From positions 2,896 through 66,895 of the forward strand of contig JBHLNS010000004.1 in the NCBI GenBank assembly GCA_048941285.1: a DNA stretch of 64,000 nt, read 5' to 3'. The notes below the pieces were generated by a model that saw only the letters and a program-made list of their open reading frames with translations, made no database searches and had not been told where the DNA came from. Each line of letters starts with the position of its first letter. The stretch's first letter is position 1. Position numbers and translations under genes: made by a program. Source of the DNA: Promethearchaeota archaeon. GTDB lineage: Archaea; Asgardarchaeota; Lokiarchaeia; Sigyniarchaeales; SOKP01. Positions 12,221 to 31,799 of this stretch are shown in pieces.

Positions 12221-13519
12221 CTAGATCTGAAATCTTTTTTTTTTTGAGGAGGCTTTTTTCACTTTAGATTTAGTACTGACTGCATATTGAATCCCTAATA
12301 CTTCTAAAAGTCTTTTTCCTTCCTCAATTAATTGAATATCTGAACTGATCTCACCTTCAAAGTGATTAAATAAGATATAATCTTCAAAAACTCCTCTTTT
12401 CCTATTATATTTCCAGCTTGGCAAGTACCCTCGAGGTTCTAAACCAAATTTGTTAAAAAGTCTTTGGTGTTCCGGTTTATAGGCAGAAATAAAGATTTCA
12501 CAATATCTAATTCTTAAATCTTTACCGCTTTCTATAAATTTTTTTATAAAAATGTATAATTCTTCAAGAGAGCCTACTTTATATGTTGTCTTTTCAAAAT
12601 TTTTAATTTGTGGAGTATATAAAAACTCAAAATATGAGTCTGAACCTTCTATTATGAAACGAATAGTTTCATATCCAAACTTATCTTTTATTACTTGTTG
12701 TTTAAGTCTTTTTTGTAAAAGCTTTAATTTTTGGTAATCTAAATATAGATTATCCGAATTTTCAACATGATATGAACCCAAATTATAACGATTCGTAGAA
12801 TATGTAAAACAATTTAGCGCTTCAGGAATAAAAGTAGGAGTTTTGCTGCTTCGCATTGTTTCTATTGCTCGTTTATCATAGCAGATATGTAAAATATCAG
12901 ATTCCACTTTTCCAAAGAAGACATCTTTATTTGGGTAAAATGCAAGAGGACGTATTCCTCCAATTGAGAGTGCAAACTGAGATTTTGCATGAGCCGTGCG
13001 ATTTTCGCAGTACCACCGGTAAATTCTATCCTTATATTTTCTATACATTCCAATATAAGAACCAATTACAGCTTTAATAACATCAACATTGCCTTGATAT
13101 TGTTTTTTTAACATTAATCCCCTAATATAACCCATTTTTTCTTCAAAATCAAGAAGGAATGTAAAACAACCCATTGTGTTGTCATAGATGTCTTTAAACA
13201 CTACCCAATCACAGTTAGGGCTCTTTATCATTTTTTGTACTTCTTGAACATCTTCCATCTCTTTATAAGGATATGTGCCGTTATACAATTCGTTGTAGAT
13301 TTCAACAATTTCAAATGCGTCTTTAGGTTGAGCAAGCTTTAATATTGGACTTTTCTTCCTTATGCTAGCCTTATGAGCAATCTCAAAATTAAGATGCATC
13401 CCTTCATTAATACTTAGAATCTCTAAATTTTCAAATGGCTTTAGAAACTGACTAGTGGAATCCGGAAATGAATCATCTAATGAAATTATCAAATCAGTAG
13501 TTAGTTCTTCCGATATCAT
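12221..13519 (-). CDS. GNAT-like acyltransferase-fold protein (two domains)
   Basis: 432-aa ORF with segments resembling the GNAT core (GYIRGLMLKKQYQGNVDVIKAVIG; ENRTAHAKSQFALSIGGIRPLAFYP). Tentative. Confidence 0.4.
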   Translation of the reverse strand: MISEELTTDLIISLDDSFPDSTSQFLKPFENLEILSINEGMHLNFEIAHKASIRKKSPILKLAQPKDAFEIVEIYNELYNGTYPYKEMEDVQEVQKMIKSPNCDWVVFKDIYDNTMGCFTFLLDFEEKMGYIRGLMLKKQYQGNVDVIKAVIGSYIGMYRKYKDRIYRWYCENRTAHAKSQFALSIGGIRPLAFYPNKDVFFGKVESDILHICYDKRAIETMRSSKTPTFIPEALNCFTYSTNRYNLGSYHVENSDNLYLDYQKLKLLQKRLKQQVIKDKFGYETIRFIIEGSDSYFEFLYTPQIKNFEKTTYKVGSLEELYIFIKKFIESGKDLRIRYCEIFISAYKPEHQRLFNKFGLEPRGYLPSWKYNRKRGVFEDYILFNHFEGEISSDIQLIEEGKRLLEVLGIQYAVSTKSKVKKASSKKKRFQI

Positions 13520-13645
13520 CCTTTACTGCTTTTCTTTTTTTAGCGAATTTTAGAGTTTCAATATGTTTTAACTTAAATTTTTGGCAAGTATATTTAAATA
13601 AAAAAGAAGAAGAATAAAGGATCATTTTTCCTTTAAATATAAAAT

Positions 13646-14005
13646 TTATACAGCTAACGTTTCTTTTAATTTTCTATAAATATTATTTACTTTTGTTCCG
13701 ATCTCTTCAAATAAACTATTTTTTTCCTCTAATTCTTTTGATAAAATTGATAGATCCCCCGTTTCAGTGAATTCATTTAGCTTATTCTCGGTTAAACTCT
13801 GATTTAAAAAGAATGGAAAAAATTCTATTAATTGTTCTATTAGCCTTATTCTAAGTTCAATAATTTGCTTTCTCAATTCTTTTGGAGTAAGATAACCATC
13901 AGCTACTTTTTCAATTCCTTTTTTTAGAATATTTAATTGAGCCTCATCAAATATAATTTTTTCAAGCATTTCATAAAGTAAATCTTTTTTTAGTTCATTC
14001 ATCAT
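13646..14005 (-). CDS. small coiled-coil protein, last gene of the membrane operon
   Basis: Start ATGATG at 14005/14002 overlaps the stop (13995-13997) of the 1278-aa gene. The sequence is heptad-like and Glu/Lys/Leu-rich. Confidence 0.5.
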   Translation of the reverse strand: MMNELKKDLLYEMLEKIIFDEAQLNILKKGIEKVADGYLTPKELRKQIIELRIRLIEQLIEFFPFFLNQSLTENKLNEFTETGDLSILSKELEEKNSLFEEIGTKVNNIYRKLKETLAV

Positions 14006-17000
14006 CGTTGTCCTCCTCATAGATGTAGTGCTGAATTTTAATAAAGAAGTCATATATAAATTGATATACCTCTTTAGCTAAGGATTCTAGATTATAGGTT
14101 TCTAGATTTAGCACATTATATCGTTCTATATAGTCTCTAAGTTCTTGTTTAGTAATTGGAAAATCTTTAATATCTTCTAAAAAAGTAAGGAATTCTTCTA
14201 ACTTATCTGGAGATATTGGCTTCTCTATATTATAATAATGCTTTAAAATATTCATTAAGAAATTTTTAATTAATCCATGTTCTATTTTTAATGCGTTGCT
14301 ATAATCTCCATTATTAATATAATTGTAAATTTTAAATATATCATAGTTAAAATCGCTTAACTCACGCATTAAAGCATCTTTTAAGCTTTGTTTCTGCACA
14401 ATATATTTTCGAGGTTTCTCTTGAAATATTTTAGTTAAACCAGATTTATTCGTAGCTTTTTCTAATATCTCAACATTTATATCTGTTTGTGTTTTCCCCT
14501 TTGTCTTATAATAATCATTTAATGCTTCTTGATATCTCTCCCCTACGGAATAAGAGGTTCTTAATGCTTCTGAACCACTAGCCTTCCGCGGATGATTTTC
14601 AACTAAATATCCATGTTTAATTATTATGTTTAAAAGCTCATCCCGAATTTTTTTAATGTGCTCCTTCCTATTAGTCTTCTGAGATGCTTTTGGATAAATT
14701 ATTTCTTTTAACTGAGTTTTAAGTTTATGTATATAAAGATTCCCAATTTGGTCGATTGTTTGGATCTCATCTAGAAATTTAATTACTTCCTCCAAATATA
14801 TGATATAATGCCCTAGATCTATCTCAAACAATGACTTTTTAGCTTGTTCTAATATTTTTCTTTCTGTAAATTTTAGGTCAAATCCCTGTTGCTCCATAAA
14901 CGATATAATTTTATCATAAGGAAGTGGATTATTTTCCTTAATAGCTTTCCAATCAACGTAAGCTGGAAATGGTTGATCAATATCATCTCTCCTGATTAAA
15001 ACTTCATTATTTTTCATATTCTTGAGATACATAATTTGATAAGTCTGATTTCGAGAACGTGTATAGTATCCAATGCCTTCAATTTCTTGTAAGTTCAATA
15101 GATTTCGCAATATTGAAATATCACGGCTATCTGTAGCTTTCAGTGTTATTACATTATTAAAATGCAGCAAAAAGTTCGCATGAAGATAATGAATTTGGTG
15201 CGCAGAAAAAATTAATCCGAAATTATTCTCAAATAATGGTTTTAAGAAGAGATCTACTTTATCATAATTTCTTTTTAAATCTAGGAAATATGAATCAAAG
15301 AATATATCTATATGCGGAATTATAATAAATTTCTTGAAATGTTCTCCTTGATTTTTAACGTAATGAATAAATTTTGCTAAAATAATGAATGTTAAAAAAA
15401 TTTTTTTATTCAAATCTCTTATTACAGAAAGATCAATGATAACTGTTTTTCGATTCTGTATAAAATGATTGGATAAAATACTATCTTTTTGAATACCTTG
15501 AAAGAAAGATAAATCACCATGTGAAAAATCTGAAAATAAAGAAAGGAGTGTATCACTTATCGGGCTTTTTTCCCAATCACTCTGATTTTGTAATGCCATA
15601 CGAATAGAACCCAAATCCATGTCAGGATTTTTTTGAATAGTATTTCGAAACATTTCAACTGAACGCTCATCTTTCTTAAAAGCTAATCCAAATGCATCGA
15701 ATACATATTCCAAGTAATCGGTATTATGCGGATCGTATGGAATATCTGATTTAGTAGGGTCTATTATGAATGCACTTCCATATTTAAAAATTAATATATC
15801 CTCTTTAAACCTAGAATCTTCAAAATAGTTATATAGCTTTGACCAATCTCCTGTAAAATCAAATATAACTGAAGAAATTTTTGTTTTAACTAATTCCGAA
15901 ACTATTTTCATAGAAATTAAATCTCTATTCTCAGAAGAACCGTTTACGATTAACAATTTCTTTAATTGGCCAAGGGTAAATCCTACGGGGACTTCTGGTT
16001 CTAAAACTTCAGTATTAATAGTATGACCTATTGTGACAAAATTTTCTAAATATAAAGGGGTATTAAATTCTGCAGCAATTTTAGTTTTTGTGCCTTTTTT
16101 GAGAATGTCAACAATCGTTGATAGAGGATACATAGACGTTCCTTGTAACATCACATAATTTAAATGACTACCATTTAATCGAAATAAGTTGTTCTTTATC
16201 GTCGAAAACAGAAATCCTGAAATTAAGTTCTGTCTTTTTAAGTCTTCAATTTCATAACTTTGAAAATTAATATTATATGCTCCTTTTAAAGCATTAACCT
16301 GAATAATTAATTCTTCTTCTAACTCAGAAAAATTTGTAACTTCAAGTAAATCAACAAATTTATAGGAATTGATCGTCATGGTTAAAATACTGTACCACAT
16401 TCCATATCGATATCCTAACCATCGTTCGGCTTCAATTTCATCCTTAATCTGCGTTTCTTCTTTCCAAAGCATCAATCTTTTTTGTTTTTCATTTATGAAT
16501 TTTAAACCTTTCTTATAAAATTCATAAAAGTTAATTGGTTGATTTTTTAAAGTGTAGCTAAATGATATCTTGTGATTGTTTAAGCTTTCAATAAACTTGC
16601 TAAGAAGGCAAAAAGGATTTTGGTATACGTATTTAAGATTGACCATTTTCATTCCAATTAGGACTTGATTGTTTATATGAATAAATAAACTAAAAGGAAA
16701 CTGTTTAACATAATAAAAAAGAACATTTTTGAATGGATTAGTAATTAATATATCATTATCTTCTAATAATCTCGATTTTGTAAATTGAAATAATAATGAT
16801 CTCCACCATATTAATAGAAATGCTAATACAAAACCCAAATTAACTAAAATAATATATAAAAAAAATATGTTAATAGAAAAAAGAACATAATCAATATAAA
16901 TTATTAAAACAGTGATTATTAAAAACTTACCAAGGAAATAACCATTAAATCCTTTCAAATATTCTTTTTTGCTCTCATTACCATTTTGATATGACTCATC

Positions 17001-17831
17001 TTCTATATAAAAAGTCCGTAAGGCATTGATCAAATGATTTCCAGAAAGAAGCATTACCTGAAAATGATGAAAATTACTGACGAGATTGCTTTTTAAATCA
17101 GTAGATTGCTTATTAATAAAATACTGTAAACGATCTAATTTATGCCGTGATAGAATCCCTTTTATGTCATAAAATACAGAAAAATATATTTTTGCTACCC
17201 TCGAATCTAATGAATTAATAGTAATCTCCCTTGAAGCATTTTCTTTAAACAAAGAAATAATGGGTTTTTGAACAATTTGATATGAGTAAGATAATCTTGT
17301 ATTTTTTGAACTTAATGCTTTAATAAATTGATGAATCGCTGAATGAACATTTTCAGGGATCACATTTATCTGAAATATTTTAATAGCAATATGAACAATG
17401 TCTTTTCGATTAGAAATATATAATGTTGTAGTATCTTTTTTGTTATGCCAAAAAATTAAATCCTCAAATGGGTTAAAAGAAACTTTATCTCTAAAAGTAA
17501 AAGGAATGAGATACCTCAATATATAAAACTCATCATAAAACACTACAATAAACAAAATTCCACATATAACACCAATGCTAGTAGATAGAATTAGATTTTG
17601 AGAAAAGATATACATTGAAATAATTAGAAATATAAATAAAATTAATAAAAACCCAGTTTTAACAATTGATAAATTATTATTTGTATCTTTAAATGAAGGA
17701 TTTACTCTCCAGATTTTTAAATATTTTTTCTTCTCTTGATTCTCCTCTATTACTGTATATTTTTTTCTGTTCTTATCATTATCAAAATCATTTATTCCTA
17801 ATGAGGCCTCATAAGTATAGTCTTTTGTCAT
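13995..17831 (-). CDS. giant membrane protein: 2x(TM hairpin + NPF-beta module) + FtsK/HerA/VirB4-like P-loop fold with eroded Walker motifs + helical C-terminal region
   Basis: 1278-aa ORF. It has two TM hairpins, each followed by related modules (NPFEDLIFW..TLYISNRKDIVHIAIKIF / NPFKNVLFY..SLFIHINNQVLIGMKMV). The central region follows the HerA/DUF87 template, but Walker A reads LIVNGSSENRD, Walker B reads FIIIPHIDIFF, and the sensor region reads GLIFSAHQ...NNVITLKATDSRD. Confidence 0.6.
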   Translation of the reverse strand: MTKDYTYEASLGINDFDNDKNRKKYTVIEENQEKKKYLKIWRVNPSFKDTNNNLSIVKTGFLLILFIFLIISMYIFSQNLILSTSIGVICGILFIVVFYDEFYILRYLIPFTFRDKVSFNPFEDLIFWHNKKDTTTLYISNRKDIVHIAIKIFQINVIPENVHSAIHQFIKALSSKNTRLSYSYQIVQKPIISLFKENASREITINSLDSRVAKIYFSVFYDIKGILSRHKLDRLQYFINKQSTDLKSNLVSNFHHFQVMLLSGNHLINALRTFYIEDESYQNGNESKKEYLKGFNGYFLGKFLIITVLIIYIDYVLFSINIFFLYIILVNLGFVLAFLLIWWRSLLFQFTKSRLLEDNDILITNPFKNVLFYYVKQFPFSLFIHINNQVLIGMKMVNLKYVYQNPFCLLSKFIESLNNHKISFSYTLKNQPINFYEFYKKGLKFINEKQKRLMLWKEETQIKDEIEAERWLGYRYGMWYSILTMTINSYKFVDLLEVTNFSELEEELIIQVNALKGAYNINFQSYEIEDLKRQNLISGFLFSTIKNNLFRLNGSHLNYVMLQGTSMYPLSTIVDILKKGTKTKIAAEFNTPLYLENFVTIGHTINTEVLEPEVPVGFTLGQLKKLLIVNGSSENRDLISMKIVSELVKTKISSVIFDFTGDWSKLYNYFEDSRFKEDILIFKYGSAFIIDPTKSDIPYDPHNTDYLEYVFDAFGLAFKKDERSVEMFRNTIQKNPDMDLGSIRMALQNQSDWEKSPISDTLLSLFSDFSHGDLSFFQGIQKDSILSNHFIQNRKTVIIDLSVIRDLNKKIFLTFIILAKFIHYVKNQGEHFKKFIIIPHIDIFFDSYFLDLKRNYDKVDLFLKPLFENNFGLIFSAHQIHYLHANFLLHFNNVITLKATDSRDISILRNLLNLQEIEGIGYYTRSRNQTYQIMYLKNMKNNEVLIRRDDIDQPFPAYVDWKAIKENNPLPYDKIISFMEQQGFDLKFTERKILEQAKKSLFEIDLGHYIIYLEEVIKFLDEIQTIDQIGNLYIHKLKTQLKEIIYPKASQKTNRKEHIKKIRDELLNIIIKHGYLVENHPRKASGSEALRTSYSVGERYQEALNDYYKTKGKTQTDINVEILEKATNKSGLTKIFQEKPRKYIVQKQSLKDALMRELSDFNYDIFKIYNYINNGDYSNALKIEHGLIKNFLMNILKHYYNIEKPISPDKLEEFLTFLEDIKDFPITKQELRDYIERYNVLNLETYNLESLAKEVYQFIYDFFIKIQHYIYEEDNDDE

Positions 17832-17832
17832 A

Positions 17833-18693
17833 TTATTTTCTCTCCTTTTTAAATAGTTTTATATAAATATATATCAAAAGAATGGTGCCTCCAAAGAGAA
17901 ATAGTGTCCAAAAACTTAATTCACTTGAATACATTGAAATGAAACTTAATTCAAAGAGTATTATAATTCCTATGGAAGCAATTAAAATAATTAATCCAAT
18001 GATGAAATATTCATATATATTTTCTATCGAGTTTTGATAATTTATATTGTTTTTGAGAGTACCTTGAATCGTTATTTTTCCTTTCTTATCATTTATTAGT
18101 GAATTTTTGATTGAATGTAAATGGATTGCTGTCTCAAATTGTTGGCTATTTAAATTATGTTGAAGACTTTTTTGAAGAGATAATTCTCGTTCTTTAATTT
18201 TTTGTATAATTAAAGGTCTTAAATTACTGGAATTTCTATCCTTTTTCTTAGCTCTGGGAGTTAAAAAAGAAAAGACTCCTAATGTAGATGTTTCTACGAG
18301 CTCATCATATTCTACGCGTTTATGGAGATTAAGAATATCTATTTTTCTTAAATCATAATATATCTGGAAGGTATTTTTAATGCATTCAAATGGAATGTCC
18401 CCTTTACTTTTAAGAAAAAAGATTTCACACTCTCTTAGGATTTCAATATGTTTTTGGTTGAAAATAGAAATTTTCAAATTTTTCTCAAATATGTCATTTA
18501 TCAACTCCATATATTCAAAAATCTTCTCTCCTGAACCTTTATTTCTTGGTCTAACACCCAGATGAATCCCAATTTCATTAACTTTATTACTGGTTAGGAT
18601 GAAACTCACGACAGCTAACTTTTTATAATTCTTATTTTCTTTGCAAACTTGTATTAAATTCTTCAGTTTAGCATCAATGATTTGTTGCTTCAT
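17833..18693 (-). CDS. membrane-anchored protein (soluble N-domain + C-terminal TM hairpin)
   Basis: 286-aa ORF. The C-terminus (FIIGLIILIASIGIIILF...FWTLFLFGGTILLIYIYI) forms two TM helices. Its stop lies 1 nt upstream of the start of the 1278-aa gene. Confidence 0.55.
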   Translation of the reverse strand: MKQQIIDAKLKNLIQVCKENKNYKKLAVVSFILTSNKVNEIGIHLGVRPRNKGSGEKIFEYMELINDIFEKNLKISIFNQKHIEILRECEIFFLKSKGDIPFECIKNTFQIYYDLRKIDILNLHKRVEYDELVETSTLGVFSFLTPRAKKKDRNSSNLRPLIIQKIKERELSLQKSLQHNLNSQQFETAIHLHSIKNSLINDKKGKITIQGTLKNNINYQNSIENIYEYFIIGLIILIASIGIIILFELSFISMYSSELSFWTLFLFGGTILLIYIYIKLFKKERK

Positions 18694-19418
18694 TTGTTTC
18701 CCTCTATGAATGTTGTTACAATATTATTGATATCATCTTTAGAAATTGGAGAATTAATTTCTTGATCTAACTCTTCTTCGGCGATATATTGATCTAAATC
18801 AATCAACTCTTGAGAATCTTGAATTATTTTGTGCATCTGTTTTTCTGGATTACGTTCTCTCTGAATAAAATTACTTATAGTTTTAAAATAAAAAATGGAG
18901 TAAGGGAAGATAAGAGGAAATGAAATTATTTGTAAAACATAACTAGGACCAATTGAATACCATATAATAACTTCTGAATCATAATTTCTTATGTTTAGAA
19001 GAGGATAGTAAAGTTCGTTTGGTATTAAATACATTAGCGGACAAATAATCAAATAAAATGCTAATAATAATAATATAAATCCGTTCGCATAGCCATATTT
19101 GTTATAAGTTTTAATTACTTTAGCTTTTTCAACATTTTTAAAAATTACGATGTATCCAGAAGTAAGTAATGCAATTAATAATAGGGCATTTATGACAAAA
19201 GGAATTGTAGCATTTACAGGTTTCATTCCTTCATTCAGAGGGGAAGCCTCAGTAAAAGGTGTTGCCCACCCATAAAAAAAATAATAACTCCAAGATACTA
19301 AAAGTTCACTATCAAAGTTATAAATTTGATATGAATACCACTCTAAAAACAATGAAAAAAATAGTAAGGTTAAACCTATTAAATAGATAATTCGAAAGCG
19401 ATGGATAATCTTGCTCAT
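18690..19418 (-). CDS. 4-TM membrane protein with acidic C-terminal tail
   Basis: 242-aa ORF with four hydrophobic helices. It overlaps the next gene by 4 nt (ATGA). Confidence 0.55.
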   Translation of the reverse strand: MSKIIHRFRIIYLIGLTLLFFSLFLEWYSYQIYNFDSELLVSWSYYFFYGWATPFTEASPLNEGMKPVNATIPFVINALLLIALLTSGYIVIFKNVEKAKVIKTYNKYGYANGFILLLLAFYLIICPLMYLIPNELYYPLLNIRNYDSEVIIWYSIGPSYVLQIISFPLIFPYSIFYFKTISNFIQRERNPEKQMHKIIQDSQELIDLDQYIAEEELDQEINSPISKDDINNIVTTFIEGNK

Positions 19419-19424
19419 GATTCC

Positions 19425-21422
19425 CTAATCCTCCAAAAATGAGCTATATTTTTCTACTAATTTATTCTTGAGGCGATTTTCTTTTGAATTCATTGATTGA
19501 AGGTTTTCATTTGATTCGAAAAGCTCTAAGCCTTCAATTTTTCTTTTACTTAATTTATTTCTAAGAAAATTTTCAGCATTTTTCTGCTCTATTTTATTTA
19601 TAATATTGAAATCGTTGTCTTTTTCAACACACTCGAAAACAAACTGTTCCATAAATCTTGTGCTTAGCTCTTCATTAATTAAGATGAGATTTGTCTCATC
19701 AAAATCTAATTTCTTTTGATAATAAGGTGTGGCAAATTCATATTGGAGTTCTGATTTCTGTTTATAAAGTCTTAGATAAATATATGCTATTAGAACAATA
19801 TAAAACGAAATTACACCATAACCTAAATTAATTAGGAAAGATAAAACTGAATACGCTTGGAATAATAATACTAATAAAAAAAAAAAACCATAAAGCATAA
19901 AGGGAGTTGAATATTTTCGTAAGTCTTTAATAAATTTATTTGAAGCTTTACAATGTAGATCCAATGCGTTCTTCTGTTCGCTATAAGTTTCTATTAGAAA
20001 ATGCTTTTGGTCAATGTATTGCAGGAAATCCTGTAGCTGGGATAGTGATAAAATATGTATATTTAATTGTTTTTGGTAAGCAAATGGAACAAGCTTTTCA
20101 GCAAAACCTACATTATTTCGATGTATTAATAATGGTTCAATTAAGATTTTATATTGAAGTGGTCCAGAGCGAAAAAAAAGTTTTTTGTGTGTAAAAGTTT
20201 TTTCCAGAAAAAGGTTGATATTTAAATATTTAGATAAATATCTAAAAAATCTTCCTTCATTTAACATATCTTCAAGAAGAACATCCTGGATATTTTTAAA
20301 TGCTTTTAAATATGATTGAGATAGTCTTTCTAACCTAAAATTCTGTTCAGTATAATTCCCTATAGATCGATATTTAATTGCATTACCTGATACAATAATT
20401 GAACCATTTAAAGAACTAATCTTTATAGGGATGATTAATATCAATTCCAAGAATTCTTTTACTCGGATGAGTTTAACTGCTAGGAGATCTATTCCAGTAA
20501 ATATCGTTCTTAATTCCGGACTTTTTTTAATTATAACAAATTCAGATAATTCAAGTTCTTTTGCAGTTTCCAAATAAATTTCCTGTAATTGAGAAGAATT
20601 TAAAGATTCACTAGAGATTGTATCTTGTTCCTGGACTTTAAGATTAGATTGTCGTAATAATTCTGGAGGGACAACTAGGAAGTTATTTATTTCCGATTCT
20701 TGGGATAATTCGGGATTATTTTTTTCTATTTTTTTTTCAGAAACATTAAAATTGCTAATTGATGCGCCATTATTATCAATCTCTTCGTAATCAAACTCCT
20801 CAAGGTTATCGTCATACCTTTCAAAATTCTCCAAACTATTTTCTAAAGGTTTAATATCAGATGTATCAATCTGTGGAGCATACCACTCTTCAGTTTCAGG
20901 TTTTTCAAATTTTCTTTCAAACCATCTATGTGATCCTTCCCCTGATTTTGATTCTTTGGTGTTGTCCAGATTTATCCTAATATTGCTTTTTTCTGGAAAA
21001 TCGTTTAATTTTTTTAGCCTTACATGCTGCTTCGCGTTTTCTATAAATTTTTGGGCTTTAACTATCCCAATACCATTAATCTGAGTTATTTTCTTTGGTG
21101 AAGAATATGCTAATTCTGAGATTGAACTAATACCAATTTCAGCAAGCTTTTCAGCAACTTTTAAACCAATACCATCTATTATTGTAAGGGATTCTCTTTT
21201 TATACTTGGATTTAAAGAGTTTTGTTGCGACACATTTGAATTAAATATATCAAATTTATCGATCCATTCACAATTCTTTTGCAATTTAGCTTCCCTAAGG
21301 CCATTATTAGATATTTTTAGCGCTTGATCTACATCATTTGCTTGAAAGGCTTCTTGTGCCATTTTGTAGTAGAACTTCAAATCCGATTTTTTCTGCATTA
21401 AACCATCTTGAGTATCAGTCAT
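19425..21422 (-). CDS. membrane protein with N-terminal TPR-like helix pair and tandem helix-hairpin-helix DNA-binding motifs
   Basis: 665-aa ORF with HhH motifs IDGIGLKVAEKLAEIGISSISEL and INGIGIVKAQKFIENA. An acidic linker follows, then a TM hairpin (FMLYGFFFLLVLLFQAYSVLSFLINLGYGVISFYIVLIAYIYL). First gene of the operon. Confidence 0.6.
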   Translation of the reverse strand: MTDTQDGLMQKKSDLKFYYKMAQEAFQANDVDQALKISNNGLREAKLQKNCEWIDKFDIFNSNVSQQNSLNPSIKRESLTIIDGIGLKVAEKLAEIGISSISELAYSSPKKITQINGIGIVKAQKFIENAKQHVRLKKLNDFPEKSNIRINLDNTKESKSGEGSHRWFERKFEKPETEEWYAPQIDTSDIKPLENSLENFERYDDNLEEFDYEEIDNNGASISNFNVSEKKIEKNNPELSQESEINNFLVVPPELLRQSNLKVQEQDTISSESLNSSQLQEIYLETAKELELSEFVIIKKSPELRTIFTGIDLLAVKLIRVKEFLELILIIPIKISSLNGSIIVSGNAIKYRSIGNYTEQNFRLERLSQSYLKAFKNIQDVLLEDMLNEGRFFRYLSKYLNINLFLEKTFTHKKLFFRSGPLQYKILIEPLLIHRNNVGFAEKLVPFAYQKQLNIHILSLSQLQDFLQYIDQKHFLIETYSEQKNALDLHCKASNKFIKDLRKYSTPFMLYGFFFLLVLLFQAYSVLSFLINLGYGVISFYIVLIAYIYLRLYKQKSELQYEFATPYYQKKLDFDETNLILINEELSTRFMEQFVFECVEKDNDFNIINKIEQKNAENFLRNKLSKRKIEGLELFESNENLQSMNSKENRLKNKLVEKYSSFLED

Positions 21423-21484
21423 AAGCGTTTTATAAGAAAAAATTATGAATCCGTTTCTGTTTAAAAAAACAATAATTATGTTGA

Positions 21485-21500
21485 TATTTAAAGAAAAAAT
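21485..21500 (-). promoter_or_regulatory. BRE/TATA-like promoter of the five-gene membrane operon
   Basis: The minus strand reads ATTTTTTCTTTAAATAT, ~62 nt upstream of the ATG at 21422. Confidence 0.4.
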
Positions 21501-21666
21501 TAGATAGAAGAAGATTTTTTCTTGATAAAGTAGTTGTCTTTTTTTCTTTAAATTAAATCATTTCTAAAACTACTTAAGGGAAATAGTAAACATTAAGTGA
21601 TCTATTATCGTTATAGTTTTTGGAAAAATAAGAGATATTAAAGAAGTCAAACATAAAGTACAAAAA

Positions 21667-21909
21667 GTGATTTGTCCTTTATGTAATGATAAGATAATTA
21701 TAGGCGTTGAAACTCAATTTACAAATAGAATTAATACAGATATCTATTTTCCACATATTCATTTACATGGAGATCCGCTTCATGCTTTAATATGTTATAT
21801 TAACTCTGAATTAAAAATAAGGAACCTAGGAGTTGTTAAGAGTATTGAGATTTCAAGAGATTCTCATACTTTTGGAGAGATAATGAAAAAATGGACTAAT
21901 CCATACTAA
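21667..21909 (+). CDS. small Cys/His protein upstream of the helicase gene
   Basis: 80-aa ORF with a GTG start and CPLC...HIHLHGDPLH. The frame stays open upstream to 21601 without a canonical start. It lies 21 nt before the helicase gene. Confidence 0.4.
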   Translation: MICPLCNDKIIIGVETQFTNRINTDIYFPHIHLHGDPLHALICYINSELKIRNLGVVKSIEISRDSHTFGEIMKKWTNPY

Positions 21910-21930
21910 TATCAAATTAGGTTAACATCA

Positions 21931-24468
21931 ATGGTATTAACAGATTTTACTGACAAAATTAAAAAAAAAGAGTTAGAAACTGAGGCTGAAAATGAGATCT
22001 TCAAATATGTATCTGATAAACGCATCCTAAGAGTGCTTTTTGAAGGAAGAATCTTTAGTTTACGGCAGATTCAAATTGATACTATAAAAATGGGATTATT
22101 TTTTCGAAAATCATTTTTAATAAGTGCACCTTCCGGGAGCGGAAAGACTCTAATTGGTGAATTATGTGCTATTAATAATATCTTTCAGAAATTTGGAAAA
22201 TCAATTTATTTAGTCCCATATAAGGCTTTAGCTACAGAAAAGTATTCTCATTTTAAGAAGAGCTATAGTCGATACGGAATAAAGATAGAGCTTTCTATAG
22301 GTGATTATGATGTGGATGACTCTAAATTAGAAAAAGCAGATTTAATAGTCACCACTTATGAAAAAATGGATTCAATTCTTAGAAATTTCTATGATAAAGA
22401 GTGGATTTTTAATATTTCGACTATAATAATTGATGAAATTCATATTATTGGTGAATCTGACAGAGGACCACGATTAGAGTCCTTAATAGTCAGGCTAAAT
22501 GAATTCCTTCATAATCCACAGATAATTGGACTTTCAGCAACTATAGCAAATGCAGAATTTTTTAATTCGTGGCTTTCTTCGCTTGGAAATAAAACAACTT
22601 TAATTAAATCAGATATTCGTCCTGTACCACTCCATTACAGAGTCGAAATTACCCAAAATAAAGATTCAACTATAAAAAGGTTTATTAGATCCACACTTGA
22701 AAAAAATGGACAAGTACTTATCTTTGTAAACCGTCGGAAAGGCGCACAGAAGGTAGCAGAGAATATTAAAACATTAGTTTGCAAATTTCTCGAAGAAAAT
22801 GAATTAAATATTTGCATGTCCCTTGAAAAAAGATTATCTTCAATTAAAGGAGGACATCGTGAATTGAAAAAGATCATAAAATCTGGTGTTGCATTTCATC
22901 ATGCAGGTTTACTTCCAAAGGAGAGAAAAATTATTGAAGATAACTTTAGAAAGCGCATTATTAAAGTAATCTGCTGTACTACAACACTCTCAGCCGGGAT
23001 AAATACCCCTGCTCGTGTTGTTATCTTGAAAGATTTTAAGAAGTATGTAACTTCTGGCCATAATATTAAGAACTTCTCAGGATATTTCGAAAATGGGGAT
23101 GGTTTTTCTTATTTTAAACCTTTTTCTGCAAACGAAGTATTTCAAATATTAGGGAGAGCTGGAAGGCCTGGACTTGATTCTGTTGGTTATGGAATAATTT
23201 TGGTTAAAAATATTGAAGAAAAAATGTGGGTTGAAGATCGATTTTTCCAAAATCATGTACTTAAAGACGTTTCAAAACCTAAATATAATGATCTCATTTC
23301 AGGTTTAAACAAGATAAATACTCTAAAAGAACAGGTATTATTAAGAGTTTTTGAGGAAAAAAAAATCACATTAGAACAGTTAAAACAATTTTTCGAAAAA
23401 ACCTATTTCTGGTATGGAATTAAAAGTAAAATGAAGGAACAGAAAATTCCTATTGAACAATTACTGATGATAAAGGAGATTACCCCCATCAATATTTTAA
23501 AGCTTCATACTGATGCTAATACAGTAAAAGAGTTAAAAGATAGTAATTACCAAATTAAATTAACCAATCTTAATGGTTCAAATATCTCTGCATATGTAAA
23601 AACTTCATTTGGGGTATATTATTGCCAATTTGATATTGAAACAGGAATTCAGTGTACATGTGGATTTAAGAATGGCATTTCTGATAACTTCGCAAATGAT
23701 GAATTTTCTTTCGAGTTTTGTAAACATATTACATCTTTTTTACTCTACTCCGTCCAGCTTCCCGATGCTAAATTTCAAAAGTATGTTGATTCAATCATTC
23801 CAAAATCAGTAAAAAACCAATATATCTTATCATATCTTTTTGAGAAAGGATTAATTTTAAAAGATAAGAAGGGATTAATCAGATGTTCTCATTTTGGCAA
23901 ATTAATAATCAGATTATATTTATACCCAGTTTCTGGTGTGATGATTAGGTATAAACTTGAAAATAATGAAATAAATACTTTTCAAGATTTGATTAAAGAA
24001 GCATTTGACATTTTGAAGGCAGAATTCCGCGTCAAAGACAATAAAATGCTACAGCCTATTTTAGAGTGGGCAGATGAGGAACCGATTGACCAAATTTTAG
24101 ATAAATATAATATTATGGCGGGAGATTTATTTTCTGTAAGAGATAATTTAGAACGAATTATCATATTTATCGGAATTATTGCTGGTAATTTAAGTACAAA
24201 CGGGATTGATCTCCAAGATAAGTTAATCAGAATCGCGGAAATGTGTGAAACTCTAAAAATCCGATTACACTATGGTATTCATGAAGAATTATTTGATCTA
24301 GTTTTAAGATTAGGTGACGTAGCACGCGTAAGAGCAAGAATATTATATAAAGCAGGATATCATACAGCTTCACAATTAAAAAAGGAAAATCCTTATGTCT
24401 TAAATCAAAAAACTGGCCTAGGTATAAATTTATGTAAAAAAATCATTATAAATAAGAAATCGAAATAA
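21931..24468 (+). CDS. Ski2-like/Hel308-family superfamily-2 DNA helicase with inserted SWIM zinc finger
   Basis: Walker A APSGSGKTLIGE, DEIH box (IIDEIH), SAT (LSAT), motif VI QILGRAGRPG and a C-terminal HhH-like RARILYKAGYHTASQL. At 845 aa it is about 130 aa longer than typical Hel308. The insert contains CTC-x21-CKH. Confidence 0.8.
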   Translation: MVLTDFTDKIKKKELETEAENEIFKYVSDKRILRVLFEGRIFSLRQIQIDTIKMGLFFRKSFLISAPSGSGKTLIGELCAINNIFQKFGKSIYLVPYKALATEKYSHFKKSYSRYGIKIELSIGDYDVDDSKLEKADLIVTTYEKMDSILRNFYDKEWIFNISTIIIDEIHIIGESDRGPRLESLIVRLNEFLHNPQIIGLSATIANAEFFNSWLSSLGNKTTLIKSDIRPVPLHYRVEITQNKDSTIKRFIRSTLEKNGQVLIFVNRRKGAQKVAENIKTLVCKFLEENELNICMSLEKRLSSIKGGHRELKKIIKSGVAFHHAGLLPKERKIIEDNFRKRIIKVICCTTTLSAGINTPARVVILKDFKKYVTSGHNIKNFSGYFENGDGFSYFKPFSANEVFQILGRAGRPGLDSVGYGIILVKNIEEKMWVEDRFFQNHVLKDVSKPKYNDLISGLNKINTLKEQVLLRVFEEKKITLEQLKQFFEKTYFWYGIKSKMKEQKIPIEQLLMIKEITPINILKLHTDANTVKELKDSNYQIKLTNLNGSNISAYVKTSFGVYYCQFDIETGIQCTCGFKNGISDNFANDEFSFEFCKHITSFLLYSVQLPDAKFQKYVDSIIPKSVKNQYILSYLFEKGLILKDKKGLIRCSHFGKLIIRLYLYPVSGVMIRYKLENNEINTFQDLIKEAFDILKAEFRVKDNKMLQPILEWADEEPIDQILDKYNIMAGDLFSVRDNLERIIIFIGIIAGNLSTNGIDLQDKLIRIAEMCETLKIRLHYGIHEELFDLVLRLGDVARVRARILYKAGYHTASQLKKENPYVLNQKTGLGINLCKKIIINKKSK

Positions 24469-25475: not shown

Positions 25476-26000
25476 TTAAACCTTTAATTTATAGTAATAA
25501 TCACCATTTATTCGTTTCAAAACGCCTTGTTTCTTTAGTTTTCTTGTTAATAATTTTACTTCTGATTTCGGAATATTGTAGTTTTCTGCCATTATTTCAA
25601 TAATATAGTAAGGAAAAGTATTATAAGCTTTAGATAAGTTATATAGCATTTGTTTTAATTTCTCAGAATAATTATAATCATTAAAATCAATATTAATTGC
25701 ATCTTTTTGACTTTTTTCCCTTCCAACTACTCTGAAATCTTCTGATGTTCTAAATACAGGTTCTGAACCCAACTCTTTTATTGCTAACTCATTCTGCTTC
25801 TTTTTCACTAATTCTATTGCATTGGATATACCTTTTATAATTTCACTTCGTTCTATTACGTTATTAACTTTATGAATATAACCACACCTAATACATTTCT
25901 TCGTCTTTTGAGTACTTTTTGCATAAATATAGTTATGACATTTTCTACAAGAAAATATCAAATAAGGAGTTTCATCTTTTTTCCAAATTATATCTTCCAA
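25476..26000 (-). CDS. zinc-ribbon protein (DUF1922-like) with C-terminal winged-helix-like region
   Basis: CRKCHNYIYAKSTQKTKKCIRCGY ribbon. The C-terminal KLLTRKLKKQGVLKRINGDYYYKL is wHTH-like. TTG start 6 nt after the Hef stop. Confidence 0.5.
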   Translation of the reverse strand: MEDIIWKKDETPYLIFSCRKCHNYIYAKSTQKTKKCIRCGYIHKVNNVIERSEIIKGISNAIELVKKKQNELAIKELGSEPVFRTSEDFRVVGREKSQKDAINIDFNDYNYSEKLKQMLYNLSKAYNTFPYYIIEIMAENYNIPKSEVKLLTRKLKKQGVLKRINGDYYYKLKV

Positions 26001-26006
26001 AGTTGC

Positions 26007-28178
26007 CTATTCCTCCTGAGGATTTTCTAGAATATTTTTTATAATAAAATATAATTCTTCTTCATTATCGATAACTATTGCCTGAATTTTTTGTTTTTTG
26101 GCAAATTCTTGTATTTTTCTCGCAATAACTCTCTTCTCTCCCTCGATATTTTGAGAAAAATCGATAAAGTCAAAGACCATGATGAAAAGTGAAGAGATTT
26201 GCTTAAAATCATTAATATCTCTTATTAGGTTTACTAAATTAAAACCTTTAGGATCGTAGATCTGGATAAGAATCTTGTTATGAATGATTATATGATGATC
26301 AGATTCTATAATATCATAAAAAATATTATCACTTTGGAGTCTTTTTCTCAGCCCGAATTTCATGGGTAAAAATTTACTTATTTTTAAATTATTTGTTATA
26401 TTGGGAGGATCAATTTTAGTCGATTCTTGCATAAATGATTCGATTTTAGATTGGTGCTGTCTTGGTTCTATTACTTTTCTCCGCAATTCCACTAGTTTAG
26501 GCTCTTTCTTAGATTTTTTAATGGTTTTCTCATTTTTAATAATAGCCATCTGATCATTGACGGGGCTATATTTATATGAATCTTGTAATTGTTTAGGATT
26601 TTTCAAATGTAAATTCATCCTTTTGAGTTTATTCATTGCAATTCTTAAATATATTTCGTCTCGCGTGTCATTACTATAAAGAATAACGACTTTACCCTCA
26701 CGATGTCTTGCTGTTCTTCCTTTCCGCTGAATGAATCTTACATCTGAAGCAACTACATCATAAAATATAACTAAATCACATTCAGCAATATCCAGCCCTT
26801 CTTCACCGACGTTTGTCGAAATGAGAACATTATATTGCCCCTCTTTAAAGTTATCTAGAATTTCTATTTGCTTTTTTTGGGACATTCCTTTATCATCAAA
26901 TGATTTCGTGGTTTGCCCCACAAATCTTACTGCATTAATTGAAGGAATTTTTTGAAGTTTTTTTGTTATATTCTTAACGGAATTACGCAACTTCACAAAC
27001 ACTAAAATTCGAGAATGAGGATTATTCTTCAATTCTTCTAAAATAATCTTAACCAAAACATAATACTTCGGATGAATCAACATTTCAGGAGAAAATTCAA
27101 CATTTTTCTTTAATTCTAAAAATATGCGATATAATCGCCCATCTGATGACAATATTTTAGTGGCTTTCGAACTACTTTTCTTCTTTGCGTCTCGATGAAG
27201 TTTATTAAAATAATCTAATAATACATCGAGCCCTTGCTGCTCTACTAATTCAAGCATATGAAATAAAATTAAAGCCTGTGCATTAATCGATAAAGCGCTA
27301 TAAATTCCTGTTTTGTCCCCATTGCTTTTTAACTCATTTACTAATTCTGAATTTAACTTTAATAAATCTTTCCTGATAACTTTTGTAAGTAATTGTTCTC
27401 CTTTTATTTCTAAAAAATTGAGTTGAGAAAGGTAATGCAATCGTTCCTCTAATACAATCGTGAGCAATTTATATACATCTTTCATTAGACTGGTTAAATC
27501 GACTCCAATTTTGTATATATCCATTGGTTTGAGATAATTCTTTACATCTTCGTCTTTTCGTGTTCTGATATGAATATTTTCTATAGGAATATGCAAATTA
27601 TTACATAATACGGTAATTTTATTTTTTGAAGCTCCAGGTGAAGCAGTCAGACCTAATATTATTCCGTCGGGATTATGATCGACAAATTCATCAGCAATCA
27701 TCGTATAAGGATAATCTCCAGTCCCATGATGAGCTTCATCAAAAATCACTAAAGCAGTATTTGAGAGGGAATACTTTTGATTCACTAAATCGTTTCTTAG
27801 AGTCTGAGGAGTGTAAAATAATATTTGATTTTGATGAAAAATATCAATCCTATGCTCAGGAAGTACTTTTCCTGTAAGAATTGCATATTTATTTTCAGGA
27901 ATCTTAAGAAATTTTAAGAATGTATGATAATGCTGATCTATTAATGGCCTGGTAGGGGCAAGGATAATAACTTTACTATCAACTGGGAACATTTCTATTA
28001 TTTTACCAGCAACAAGAACCGCAATTATCGTTTTACCCAACCCTGTAGGAAGTACAACTAACGAGTTCTTTCCAGCACATTGTTCTGCGATTTTTTCTTG
28101 GTATTCTCTAACCTCTAATTCACTCGAGTCTAATATCGATGCGCTTTTTTCTACAGTTAGCCTTATCTCACCCATCAT
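26007..28178 (-). CDS. hef: Hef/FANCM/Mph1-family SF2 helicase with C-terminal ERCC4-like domain lacking catalytic residues
   Basis: PTGLGKT Walker A, DEAH (FDEAHH), TASPG and motif VI QRKGRTAR. The C-terminal ~135 aa keep the XPF/ERCC4 topology, but I could not find the GDY/ERK residues. There is no (HhH)2 tail. Confidence 0.75.
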   Translation of the reverse strand: MMGEIRLTVEKSASILDSSELEVREYQEKIAEQCAGKNSLVVLPTGLGKTIIAVLVAGKIIEMFPVDSKVIILAPTRPLIDQHYHTFLKFLKIPENKYAILTGKVLPEHRIDIFHQNQILFYTPQTLRNDLVNQKYSLSNTALVIFDEAHHGTGDYPYTMIADEFVDHNPDGIILGLTASPGASKNKITVLCNNLHIPIENIHIRTRKDEDVKNYLKPMDIYKIGVDLTSLMKDVYKLLTIVLEERLHYLSQLNFLEIKGEQLLTKVIRKDLLKLNSELVNELKSNGDKTGIYSALSINAQALILFHMLELVEQQGLDVLLDYFNKLHRDAKKKSSSKATKILSSDGRLYRIFLELKKNVEFSPEMLIHPKYYVLVKIILEELKNNPHSRILVFVKLRNSVKNITKKLQKIPSINAVRFVGQTTKSFDDKGMSQKKQIEILDNFKEGQYNVLISTNVGEEGLDIAECDLVIFYDVVASDVRFIQRKGRTARHREGKVVILYSNDTRDEIYLRIAMNKLKRMNLHLKNPKQLQDSYKYSPVNDQMAIIKNEKTIKKSKKEPKLVELRRKVIEPRQHQSKIESFMQESTKIDPPNITNNLKISKFLPMKFGLRKRLQSDNIFYDIIESDHHIIIHNKILIQIYDPKGFNLVNLIRDINDFKQISSLFIMVFDFIDFSQNIEGEKRVIARKIQEFAKKQKIQAIVIDNEEELYFIIKNILENPQEE

Positions 28179-31750: not shown

Positions 31751-31799
31751 TTTCTCTACCAAAAACTGTTTCTTGTATGTTTAACTACCATTCTTACTA

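Follow-up and report, generated by a model that had tools for sequence, protein, structure and literature searches.

What does an archaeal cell do with a membrane machine whose motor appears to be dead? The question is raised by a 64,000-nucleotide stretch from a Promethearchaeota archaeon (GenBank assembly GCA_048941285.1, contig JBHLNS010000004.1, positions 2,896 to 66,895 of the forward strand). We refer to this whole stretch as the window and count positions from its first letter. Between 13646 and 21422 it holds five open reading frames (ORFs), which we call g1 to g5; they and all their internal features lie on the minus strand. The fourth, g4 (13995..17831, 1278 amino acids, aa), looks by predicted structure like a relative of VirB4. 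The first, g1 (19425..21422, 665 aa), carries a helix-hairpin-helix (HhH) domain on a membrane protein. The others are g2 (18690..19418, 242 aa), g3 (17833..18693, 286 aa) and g5 (13646..14005, 119 aa). The answer we favour is that the five products would form a nucleic-acid platform on the cytoplasmic face of the membrane, built on an inactive VirB3-VirB4-like scaffold and supplied with energy in trans. We give this reading a probability of about 40%.

The argument starts with g4, which sequence comparison leaves without a name. A homology search returned 62 homologues of full length, 1191-1307 aa long and with 38-100% identity. Each carries the annotation 'hypothetical' and lacks a precomputed Pfam domain, and those that have a name are without exception from Asgard (Promethearchaeota) metagenome-assembled genomes (MAGs). 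The protein itself has no Pfam or NCBIfam match, and its profile finds no VirB4 or HerA among PDB sequences. VirB4 models match none of 32 family members, DUF87 matches one of the 32 (E=9e-4), and none of those scanned reaches the Pfam threshold. We therefore turned to a model of residues 1-1200 made with AlphaFold2 (AF2) from a 55-sequence alignment (mean predicted local distance difference test score, pLDDT, 79.1; predicted TM-score, pTM, 0.61). When this model was searched against the PDB with Foldseek, the top nine matches were full-length TrwK/VirB4 proteins of the R388 type IV secretion system (T4SS; 8rtd, 7o42, 8rtb, 7o43, 7o41). Their E values run from 3e-18 (best, 8rtd_O) to 6e-14 over 912-997 aligned columns. 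Since the best alignment spans ~985 columns, the similarity extends beyond the ATPase domain; the TM-scores are low (0.27/0.37) because the domain arrangement differs. Next come HerA (4d2i, E=2e-10; 9x1m), then HerA defence complexes (8zit among the HerA-tier matches) and DndH-C. FtsK is absent from the top 50 structures, and no FtsK_SpoIIIE or gamma-domain profile matches; with the Walker motifs absent as well, we rejected FtsK/SpoIIIE as the identity of g4. A first-pass annotation of this DNA, made from the letters alone, had suggested an FtsK/HerA/VirB4-type fold and had called for structure prediction to check it. The model supports a fold of VirB4/HerA type and sharpens the suggestion to the VirB4 branch rather than HerA in general, so that g4 probably descends from VirB4.

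The same annotation had seen duplicated transmembrane (TM) hairpin modules in g4, and these are indeed there. According to hydropathy and the AF2 model, the first hairpin occupies residues 54-98 (17538..17672) and is followed by an alpha/beta module at residues 116-272 (17016..17486); the second hairpin (residues 295-340, 16812..16949) precedes a second module (residues 361-545, 16197..16751). The two modules align with each other (BLASTP E=7e-7), and the order of strands and helices is identical in the model. A small beta-rich linker with an invariant AAEFNTPLYLEN...NTE motif leads into the RecA-like, FtsK/HerA/VirB4-type core (residues ~596-960, 14952..16046), delimited by AF2, Foldseek and alignment to HerA-like ATPases, which bears the family motifs LIFDFxGxWSKL and KTVIIDLS. 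The chain ends in a helical/winged-helix region. Within it, residues ~1034-1100 (14532..14732) are modelled as helix-helix-strand-strand and include the conserved HGYLVExHPxRASGSExLRTSYSVG. Sub-threshold matches to MAGE WH-B occur in 12 of 32 family members and map to about residues 1024-1097, two members match MukF_C, and the distant relative P0240 matches PadR/HTH_34 at its C-terminus. This unit is probably a winged helix, kite-like or DNA-binding, to judge from the model and these matches.

A TM hairpin thus precedes each N-terminal module, an arrangement for which R388 offers a parallel. There, the two-helix TM hairpin of VirB3 wraps the N-terminal domain of VirB4, VirB4 dimers are joined via their N-terminal domains, and the inner-membrane complex also includes the TM tails of VirB8 (PMC9259494). 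By analogy, g4 resembles a VirB3-VirB4 arrangement that has been fused into one chain and duplicated within it. A split arrangement was seen in two distant g4 relatives of 818-856 aa, at L080 (9224-12457) and L081 (8941-12508), each preceded by a separate gene of 253-321 aa; the surroundings of both are of Asgard type, with ESCRT-II, RadA and FEN1 nearby. The upstream gene corresponds to the first hairpin/N-terminal module of g4 and matches the g4 profile at E=2e-8 and 3e-10. Because the module stands there as a gene of its own, as VirB3 does, this is consistent with the fused VirB3/VirB4 view.

If g4 is a VirB4, it is one that has lost the means to hydrolyse ATP. Its degenerate Walker A, NGSSENRD (residues 630-637, 15921..15944), follows the core strand LLIV, and its degenerate Walker B, FIIIPHID (residues 835-842, 15306..15329), follows the strand FIII. 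An invariant R636 occupies the position of the Walker lysine and D637 that of the Ser/Thr, while the Asp-Glu of active relatives is replaced by P839 and H840, both invariant. Across 55 aligned homologues neither R636 nor P839 varies. The register was checked against intact ATPases encoded in a paralogous operon, described below. Their GLTGxGK[TS] aligns with NG[ST]SExR[DE], placing the lysine at R636; their hhhhDE aligns with IIIPH, placing Asp-Glu at P839-H840; and hhhDLS aligns exactly. The erosion that had been read from this one protein holds for the whole family. A HMMER scan of 1.84 billion cluster representatives gave 248 members (190 at E<=1e-10), of which all that carry a name are Asgard. 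No canonical Walker A occurs at the site in any of the 149 family representatives listed, and distant subfamilies retain at most a 'GG[TS]xExR' P-loop remnant.

Could g4 still bind nucleotide, or hydrolyse it slowly, through a non-canonical site (R636, D658, D800, K820, H823), and so serve as a switch or a slow motor? Several charged residues near the lost active site do not vary, among them the arginine that replaces the Walker lysine, and the P-loop remnant just mentioned would fit such a role. However, in most members the glycine-rich loop has become variable and non-glycine, and both acidic residues of Walker B are replaced (by Pro-His/Tyr/Asn) throughout the family. Moreover, a change from Lys to Arg in Walker A generally abolishes hydrolysis in P-loop NTPases. 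We hold residual nucleotide use to be very unlikely. Nor does g4 have the look of a gene in decay. The motifs are lost family-wide, yet orthologues stay full-length (~1270 aa) and keep ~70 invariant residues down to 33-38% identity, a pattern that indicates selection for a non-catalytic role.

Is g4 kept on its own or as part of a set? The first-pass annotation had placed five co-oriented genes at the coordinates given above, with spacings of +6, -4, +1 and -11 nucleotides (nt), and all of this could be reproduced. The gap between g1 and g2 is +6 nt (g1 ends at 19425, g2 starts at 19418), g2 and g3 overlap (-4 nt; 18690 and 18693), g3 and g4 are separated by +1 nt (17833 and 17831), and g4 and g5 overlap (-11 nt; 13995 and 14005). 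The longest ORF for g5 begins at 14053; we favour the start at 14005 because orthologues are 119-127 aa long. The consensus TATA element said to lie upstream does exist, as the octamer TTTAAATA at 21485-21492 (minus strand), in the divergent intergenic region (21423..21930) that also contains a small ORF. Its significance did not survive: the window contains 71 octamers of the TTTAAATA type where chance alone would give 54, and several lie inside the genes. The match adds little, because in so AT-rich a window (~29% GC) such matches are not above chance. The operon is supported much better by its tight spacing, which is conserved in ~50 related genomes, than by the TATA element.

That conservation, for which the earlier annotation had proposed a check in Asgard genomes, was found with a scan of one genome per GTDB species, using profile hidden Markov models and tblastn. 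It yielded 75 loci, all in Asgard MAGs, labelled by their submitters as Promethearchaeota/-ia, Hermod-, Hod- (including Ca. Hodarchaeum mangrovi), Thor- or Odinarchaeota. The order g1-g2-g3-g4-g5 is kept in 59 of the 75, down to ~33% identity. All four partners of g4 are present in 44, and most of the others are truncated by contig ends. Median gaps across related loci are 3, -4, 2 and -1 nt. The gene for g5 always lies directly after that for g4, at 20 nt or less in 52 of 52 loci, and g2 adjoins g1 and g3 in 48-49 loci. Usually there is one such locus, which we call type 1, per genome.

Sixteen loci bear a g4 paralogue without g1, g2, g3 or g5, and several genomes hold both kinds of operon. 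Where the flanks exist, the order of this type-2 operon is a tetratricopeptide repeat (TPR) protein, a Walker-less g4 paralogue (~1280 aa), a soluble protein of 630-690 aa and a giant protein of 1400-1750 aa for which no Pfam match was found (L059:1234-13758, L055:8300-20433, L061:9923-20633; also L004, L056, L057 and L071). In the 630-690-aa protein both Walker motifs, A and B, are intact; one copy passes the Pfam threshold for DUF87/HerA, and the sequence begins with 'SWLCNPFGD', resembling 'NPFED' of g4. Its profile matches HerA structures (9x1l, 1e-4; 4d2i, 1.5e-3) and the B204 ATPase of Sulfolobus turreted icosahedral virus (STIV). No homologue of it lies within the window. In Crenarchaeota, CedB and CedD are described as ATPases and as VirB4-like paralogues that share halves of the VirB4 N-terminal domain, both being needed for import (PMC11868833, PMC11823120). 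The pairing of a dead and a live VirB4-like protein in the type-2 operon recalls CedB/CedD, a precedent from archaeal DNA import for two VirB4-like paralogues that work jointly. The type-2 operon is also a natural comparison for g1-g5.

VirB4 and HerA genes are typical of mobile elements and of HerA defence systems, the latter appear among the structural matches of g4, and the type-2 ATPase matches the mad8 and HerA models of PADLOC. Hence g1-g5 might be the decaying or domesticated remnant of a conjugative element, a virus or a defence island, with g4 a dying gene. The conservation data contradict this, and we find it scarcely credible. Besides the full-length orthologues with their invariant residues and the conserved gene order and spacing, the cluster follows the divergence of a housekeeping gene. 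Divergently from g1 lies a gene for a Hel308/Ski2-like helicase (21931..24468, plus strand, 845 aa), as the first-pass annotation had noticed (Pfam DEAD, Helicase_C and Helicase_dom4_arc; NCBIfam Hel308 models, E down to 4e-120). It stands in this orientation within 3 kb upstream of g1 in 26 of the 31 loci with enough flank. Measured against the window copies, the identities of g4 and Hel308 rise and fall together (Spearman rho 0.96, n=30), so the cluster co-diverges with this gene; g4 identity also correlates with the identities of g1, g2, g3 and g5 (Spearman 0.79-0.93). No relatives of the g4 cluster occur in 2.9 million IMG/VR viral contigs, PADLOC has no match for g1-g5 or for the gene downstream at 12221-13519, the window contains no tRNA genes, and no integrase was found among the neighbours scanned. 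The co-divergence with Hel308 and the blanks in IMG/VR, PADLOC and the tRNA search indicate that g1-g5 is an operon of the cell that passes on vertically, and neither a mobile element nor a virus nor a catalogued defence system. Nor do g1-g5 match the PADLOC models of known anti-phage systems with HerA (SIR2-HerA, DUF4297-HerA, MADS).

What, then, would such an operon handle? The main clue comes from g1, in which two HhH motifs had been proposed from the sequence. The protein consists of an N-terminal helical region, an (HhH)2 domain, a disordered linker of ~110 residues, a C-domain, a TM hairpin and a C-terminal helical tail; its AF2 model has a pLDDT of 73.6 overall and ~90 over residues 253-630 (the C-domain including the hairpin). 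Residues 78-138 (21009..21191) form a true (HhH)2 domain like that at the N-terminus of RadA/Rad51. Pfam HHH_5 (PF14520) matches residues 79-131 with 38.6 bits against a cut-off of 27, both G-h-G hairpins are retained (GIGLKVAEKL and GIGIVKAQKF), and G84, G86, G117, I118 and G119 are nearly invariant. Profile matches include the HhH repeats of Topo V (5e-10) and the N-terminal domain of RadA/Rad51 (3e-8), on which the g1 domain superposes in Foldseek with a root-mean-square deviation of 1.4-1.8 A at 30-33% identity. The TM hairpin lies at residues ~505-545 (19788..19910) by hydropathy, with AF2 helices at 486-520 and 524-564; a structure search with the C-domain (253-630) gave no PDB or BFVD match. 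There are 58 g1 homologues, all named ones Asgard, annotated as 'hypothetical protein' or 'HhH/DUF4332 domain-containing'. In four orthologues (P0080, P0093, P0102, P0108) a Zc3h12a-type NYN (PIN-like) nuclease domain follows the HhH (E=1e-11 to 2e-17), about where the window protein has its disordered linker. The C-terminal end of g1, KYSSFLED (19425-19448), is nearly invariant across orthologues that are otherwise 30-70% identical, which suggests a short docking peptide.

An HhH domain need not bind nucleic acid, and one may suppose that g1-g5 have no nucleic-acid role at all. A dead VirB4-like scaffold could serve protein secretion, membrane-protein assembly or membrane organisation, with the HhH as a protein-interaction module. 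VirB4-family machines also move proteins, HhH units such as NusA AR2 bind them, four of the five products are membrane proteins without a family match, and g3 and g4 give only weak membrane matches of the DUF2207_C type. EssC and EccC are a comparable case, in which degenerate ATPase domains have structural or regulatory roles; both FtsK and EssC retain one or more active ATPase domains. Set against this are the closeness of the g1 HhH to the DNA-binding RadA/Rad51 N-terminal domain and Topo V with both hairpins kept, the nuclease-domain fusions in g1 orthologues and the conserved neighbour, a DNA repair helicase. Secretion-related domains, substrates and signal-bearing neighbours were not seen. 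On balance such a protein-only role is unlikely, though it deserves to be kept in mind.

The remaining partners tell us on which side of the membrane the complex would lie. TM segments were found by hydropathy and in the AF2 models in four of the five products, in agreement with what had been claimed for them, and g5, which has none, is a small soluble helical protein without a significant family or PDB-profile match. The polytopic g2 has three to four TM helices, a first loop rich in Trp/Tyr and an acidic C-terminal tail; no Pfam, NCBIfam or PDB profile matches it. In g3, a soluble N-terminal domain of ~225 aa without a family match is followed by a C-terminal TM hairpin (residues 229-281, 17851-18009, by hydropathy). 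DUF2207_C matches over this hairpin are sub-threshold, in 12 of 28 members, and no family or PDB-profile match to g3 is significant. Because g1, g3 and g4 have hairpin anchors and no signal peptide, their large domains are all predicted on the cytoplasmic side. Only g2 has appreciable predicted non-cytoplasmic loops, and these are short. To speak of an 'envelope' system, as had been done, is thus an overstatement, with nearly all of the soluble mass predicted to be cytoplasmic.

This topology, the lack of an obvious channel or pilin, and a motor dead across the whole family would also suit a static device. The complex could be a nucleoid-membrane tether, or an anchor linked to segregation or division, that holds DNA through the g1 HhH and the g4 winged helix without transporting it, as an FtsK-like protein frozen into a non-motor. 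The presence of two separate putative DNA-binding modules would fit, as would the housekeeping-like character of an operon that is vertically inherited and usually present as one type-1 locus per genome. However, FtsK is neither among the top structural matches of g4 nor recovered by profile, the Hel308 neighbour points to processing, as do the NYN domains inserted into certain g1 orthologues, and the paralogous operon appears, from its intact motifs, to include an active ATPase. We consider a purely static tether rather improbable.

How does the platform that we favour compare with systems already described? VirB3-VirB4 of R388 (TrwM/TrwK; PDB 8rtd, 7o41-7o43) shares with g4 an N-terminal alpha/beta domain and a RecA-like C-terminal domain. 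In R388 a two-helix TM hairpin, that of VirB3, provides an anchor beside the N-terminal domain, and the hairpins fused into g4 would be the analogue; small membrane proteins, bitopic or with hairpins, stand beside the hub protein in either system. In contrast to VirB4, Walker A and B are destroyed in every g4 member, the hairpin and N-terminal module are duplicated within one polypeptide, and there is an extra C-terminal helical/winged-helix region of ~320 aa. Unlike a T4SS, the g4 cluster is chromosomal, vertically inherited and confined to Asgard genomes. Judged as a member of the VirB4/TrbE/CagE family, g4 has the two-domain fold and lacks the Walker motifs, a match to the Pfam or NCBIfam VirB4/TrbE/CagE/TraC models and, by sequence searches of g1, g2, g3, g5 and the neighbours, T4SS partners.

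The Ced/Ted systems of Crenarchaeota (CedA, CedA1, CedA2, CedB, CedD) are likewise archaeal and chromosomal and combine a VirB4/HerA-like protein with small membrane proteins; VirB4-type N-terminal domains occur in both Ced proteins and g4. They differ in that g4 is not an ATPase and the type-1 operon has none. No CedA-like polytopic protein or pilin was detected in g1-g5, and the HhH protein g1 is without a Ced counterpart. Pfam and NCBIfam reveal no sequence similarity between g1-g5 and Ced, and the composition differs from that given in PMC11868833. With HerA, g4 has in common the RecA-like FtsK/HerA core and motifs of the 'hhhhDxxG' and 'hhhDLS' types, whereas g4 has no Walker motifs, is membrane-anchored and has a VirB4-type rather than a HAS-barrel-only N-terminus. 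HerA systems also differ in their partners: no NurA, SIR2 or DUF4297 was found among the neighbours scanned, and PADLOC gives no match. As a candidate for the HerA (DUF87) clade, g4 shows a fold-level match that is real (E=2e-10) and neither the profile, the Walker motifs nor a nuclease partner. FtsK/SpoIIIE follow the same logic as g4, with N-terminal TM segments, an FtsK/HerA core and a C-terminal winged helix. Neither they nor EssC/EccC of the type VII secretion system are among the top structural matches of g4, and their partners differ. Finally, the N-terminal (HhH)2 of RadA/Rad51, the HhH repeats of Topo V and domain 5 of Hel308 are known domains like residues 78-138 of g1. Unlike RadA and Topo V, g1 has its HhH tethered by a disordered linker to a membrane-anchored C-domain and has no recombinase or topoisomerase core.

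The claim that no described system has this composition stands, since searches of Pfam, NCBIfam, PADLOC, PDB profiles and the full-text literature turned up no characterised system like g1-g5. What is new here, if the predicted structure is a good guide to the VirB4 relationship, is a catalytically dead, duplicated VirB3-VirB4-like hub with novel partners.

From these elements a mechanism can be sketched. The products of g1-g5 would form one Asgard-specific membrane complex, placed almost entirely on the cytoplasmic face and resembling the VirB3-VirB4-VirB8tail inner-membrane complex of T4SSs. Its hub would be g4, from the VirB4 branch, whose members act as motors in conjugation and in the Ced/Ted DNA import of archaea. 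Because the ATP-hydrolysis site is lost, g4 is most likely a structural platform, probably ring- or dimer-forming, and not a motor. The membrane layer would consist of polytopic g2 together with g1 and g3, anchored by their hairpins, while g5 would be a soluble adaptor. The HhH of g1 on its flexible arm, joined in some lineages by the NYN nuclease, and the putative winged helix of g4 would bind nucleic acid (DNA, most likely) and place it at the membrane. Energy, where a step requires it, would come from a separate enzyme; here Hel308 is the obvious candidate, and in the paralogous operon this part would fall to the HerA-like ATPase. The complex might take up or exchange DNA, or it might repair or process DNA in connection with the membrane. 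What the data show is a conserved gene order, anchoring in the membrane, the predicted folds, the loss of the motifs, restriction to Asgard genomes and joint vertical inheritance; complex formation, oligomeric state, the DNA ligand, the Hel308 link and the biological role are all things that we infer. The earlier idea of a DNA-handling system thus fits in domain content and neighbourhood, while DNA handling itself is still deduced.

Several observations weigh against this platform. By sequence (Pfam, NCBIfam and PDB profiles, applied to g1, g2, g3, g5 and the neighbours) neither a VirB6/CedA-like channel nor a VirB2 pilin, a VirD4 coupling protein or a relaxase was detected; g2 is small and very little of the complex is predicted to lie outside the cell, which argues against a classical trans-envelope conduit. 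Sequence-profile links of g4 to HerA/VirB4 are not significant, and the relationship is drawn from predicted structure. Complex formation is deduced from synteny alone. NusA AR2 is among the matches of g1, so that HhH could mediate protein contacts and the ligand could be a protein; NYN domains are typically RNases, so that it could also be RNA. The adjacency of Hel308 could be simple conserved synteny of two unrelated units. Names of cultured strains are absent among the named matches listed, which means that the Asgard distribution is incomplete or that the sequences diverge there.

A bolder version of the same thought is that a conjugation or DNA-import motor became a permanent, ATP-independent hub coupling chromosomal DNA and Hel308 to the cytoplasmic membrane. 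Here g1 would contribute an N-terminal DNA-binding helical domain, a disordered linker, two TM helices and a C-terminal domain, a layout that echoes the LEM/HeH chromatin tethers of the inner nuclear membrane in architecture only; no homology is claimed. We regard this as a long shot.

The surroundings of the operon deserve a brief description. Hel308 is a conserved divergent neighbour that lies outside the operon itself and is a candidate functional partner of the g1-g5 complex. At 845 aa the window homologue is longer than the 674-739 positions of NCBIfam Hel308-type models; it is 61-90% identical among these Asgard MAGs and far more conserved than the adjoining operon proteins. Directly upstream of it, on the same strand, is an 80-aa ORF (21667-21909, plus strand), and L001 has a 67-aa gene at the equivalent position. 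On the other side, 126 nt past g5 and co-oriented with it, a gene at 12221..13519 (minus strand) encodes a 432-aa protein without a family match. A homologue is found within 2.5 kb downstream in 31 of 47 loci, and it is probably a separate transcription unit. Its orthologues in L001 and L002 are 627-641 aa long and contain DUF998, a domain apparently missing from the window copy. Between g5 and this gene, at 13591-13598, there is a TATA-like octamer. Further away, at 25476-28178 (minus strand), the gene for a zinc-ribbon-type protein (DUF1922) is paired with that for a DEAD/Cas3-like helicase of 723 aa, which has an RNA-helicase helical bundle. The pair recurs near the cluster in L002 and L081, an instance of extended synteny. 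A large prenyltransferase-toroid protein accompanies the pair (28838-31762 in the window; its counterpart in L002 has 1101 aa).

Among known prokaryotes, none is more closely related to eukaryotes than the Asgard archaea, and the conserved genes peculiar to this lineage mostly lack an annotation. The genes g1-g5 are one such block, with ~250 cluster representatives for the 1278-aa g4 alone, and assignment to the VirB4 type provides a specific hypothesis that can be tested for an entire family of uncharacterised proteins. On this assignment, g4 would document a family-wide pseudo-enzyme offshoot of the FtsK/HerA/VirB4 ATPases and extend VirB4-type machinery to Asgard chromosomes. The operon may represent a membrane-DNA interface, or a route of DNA exchange or repair, linked to Hel308 in Asgard archaea. 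If this is true, it would bear on how genome and membrane were connected in the archaeal ancestors of eukaryotes.

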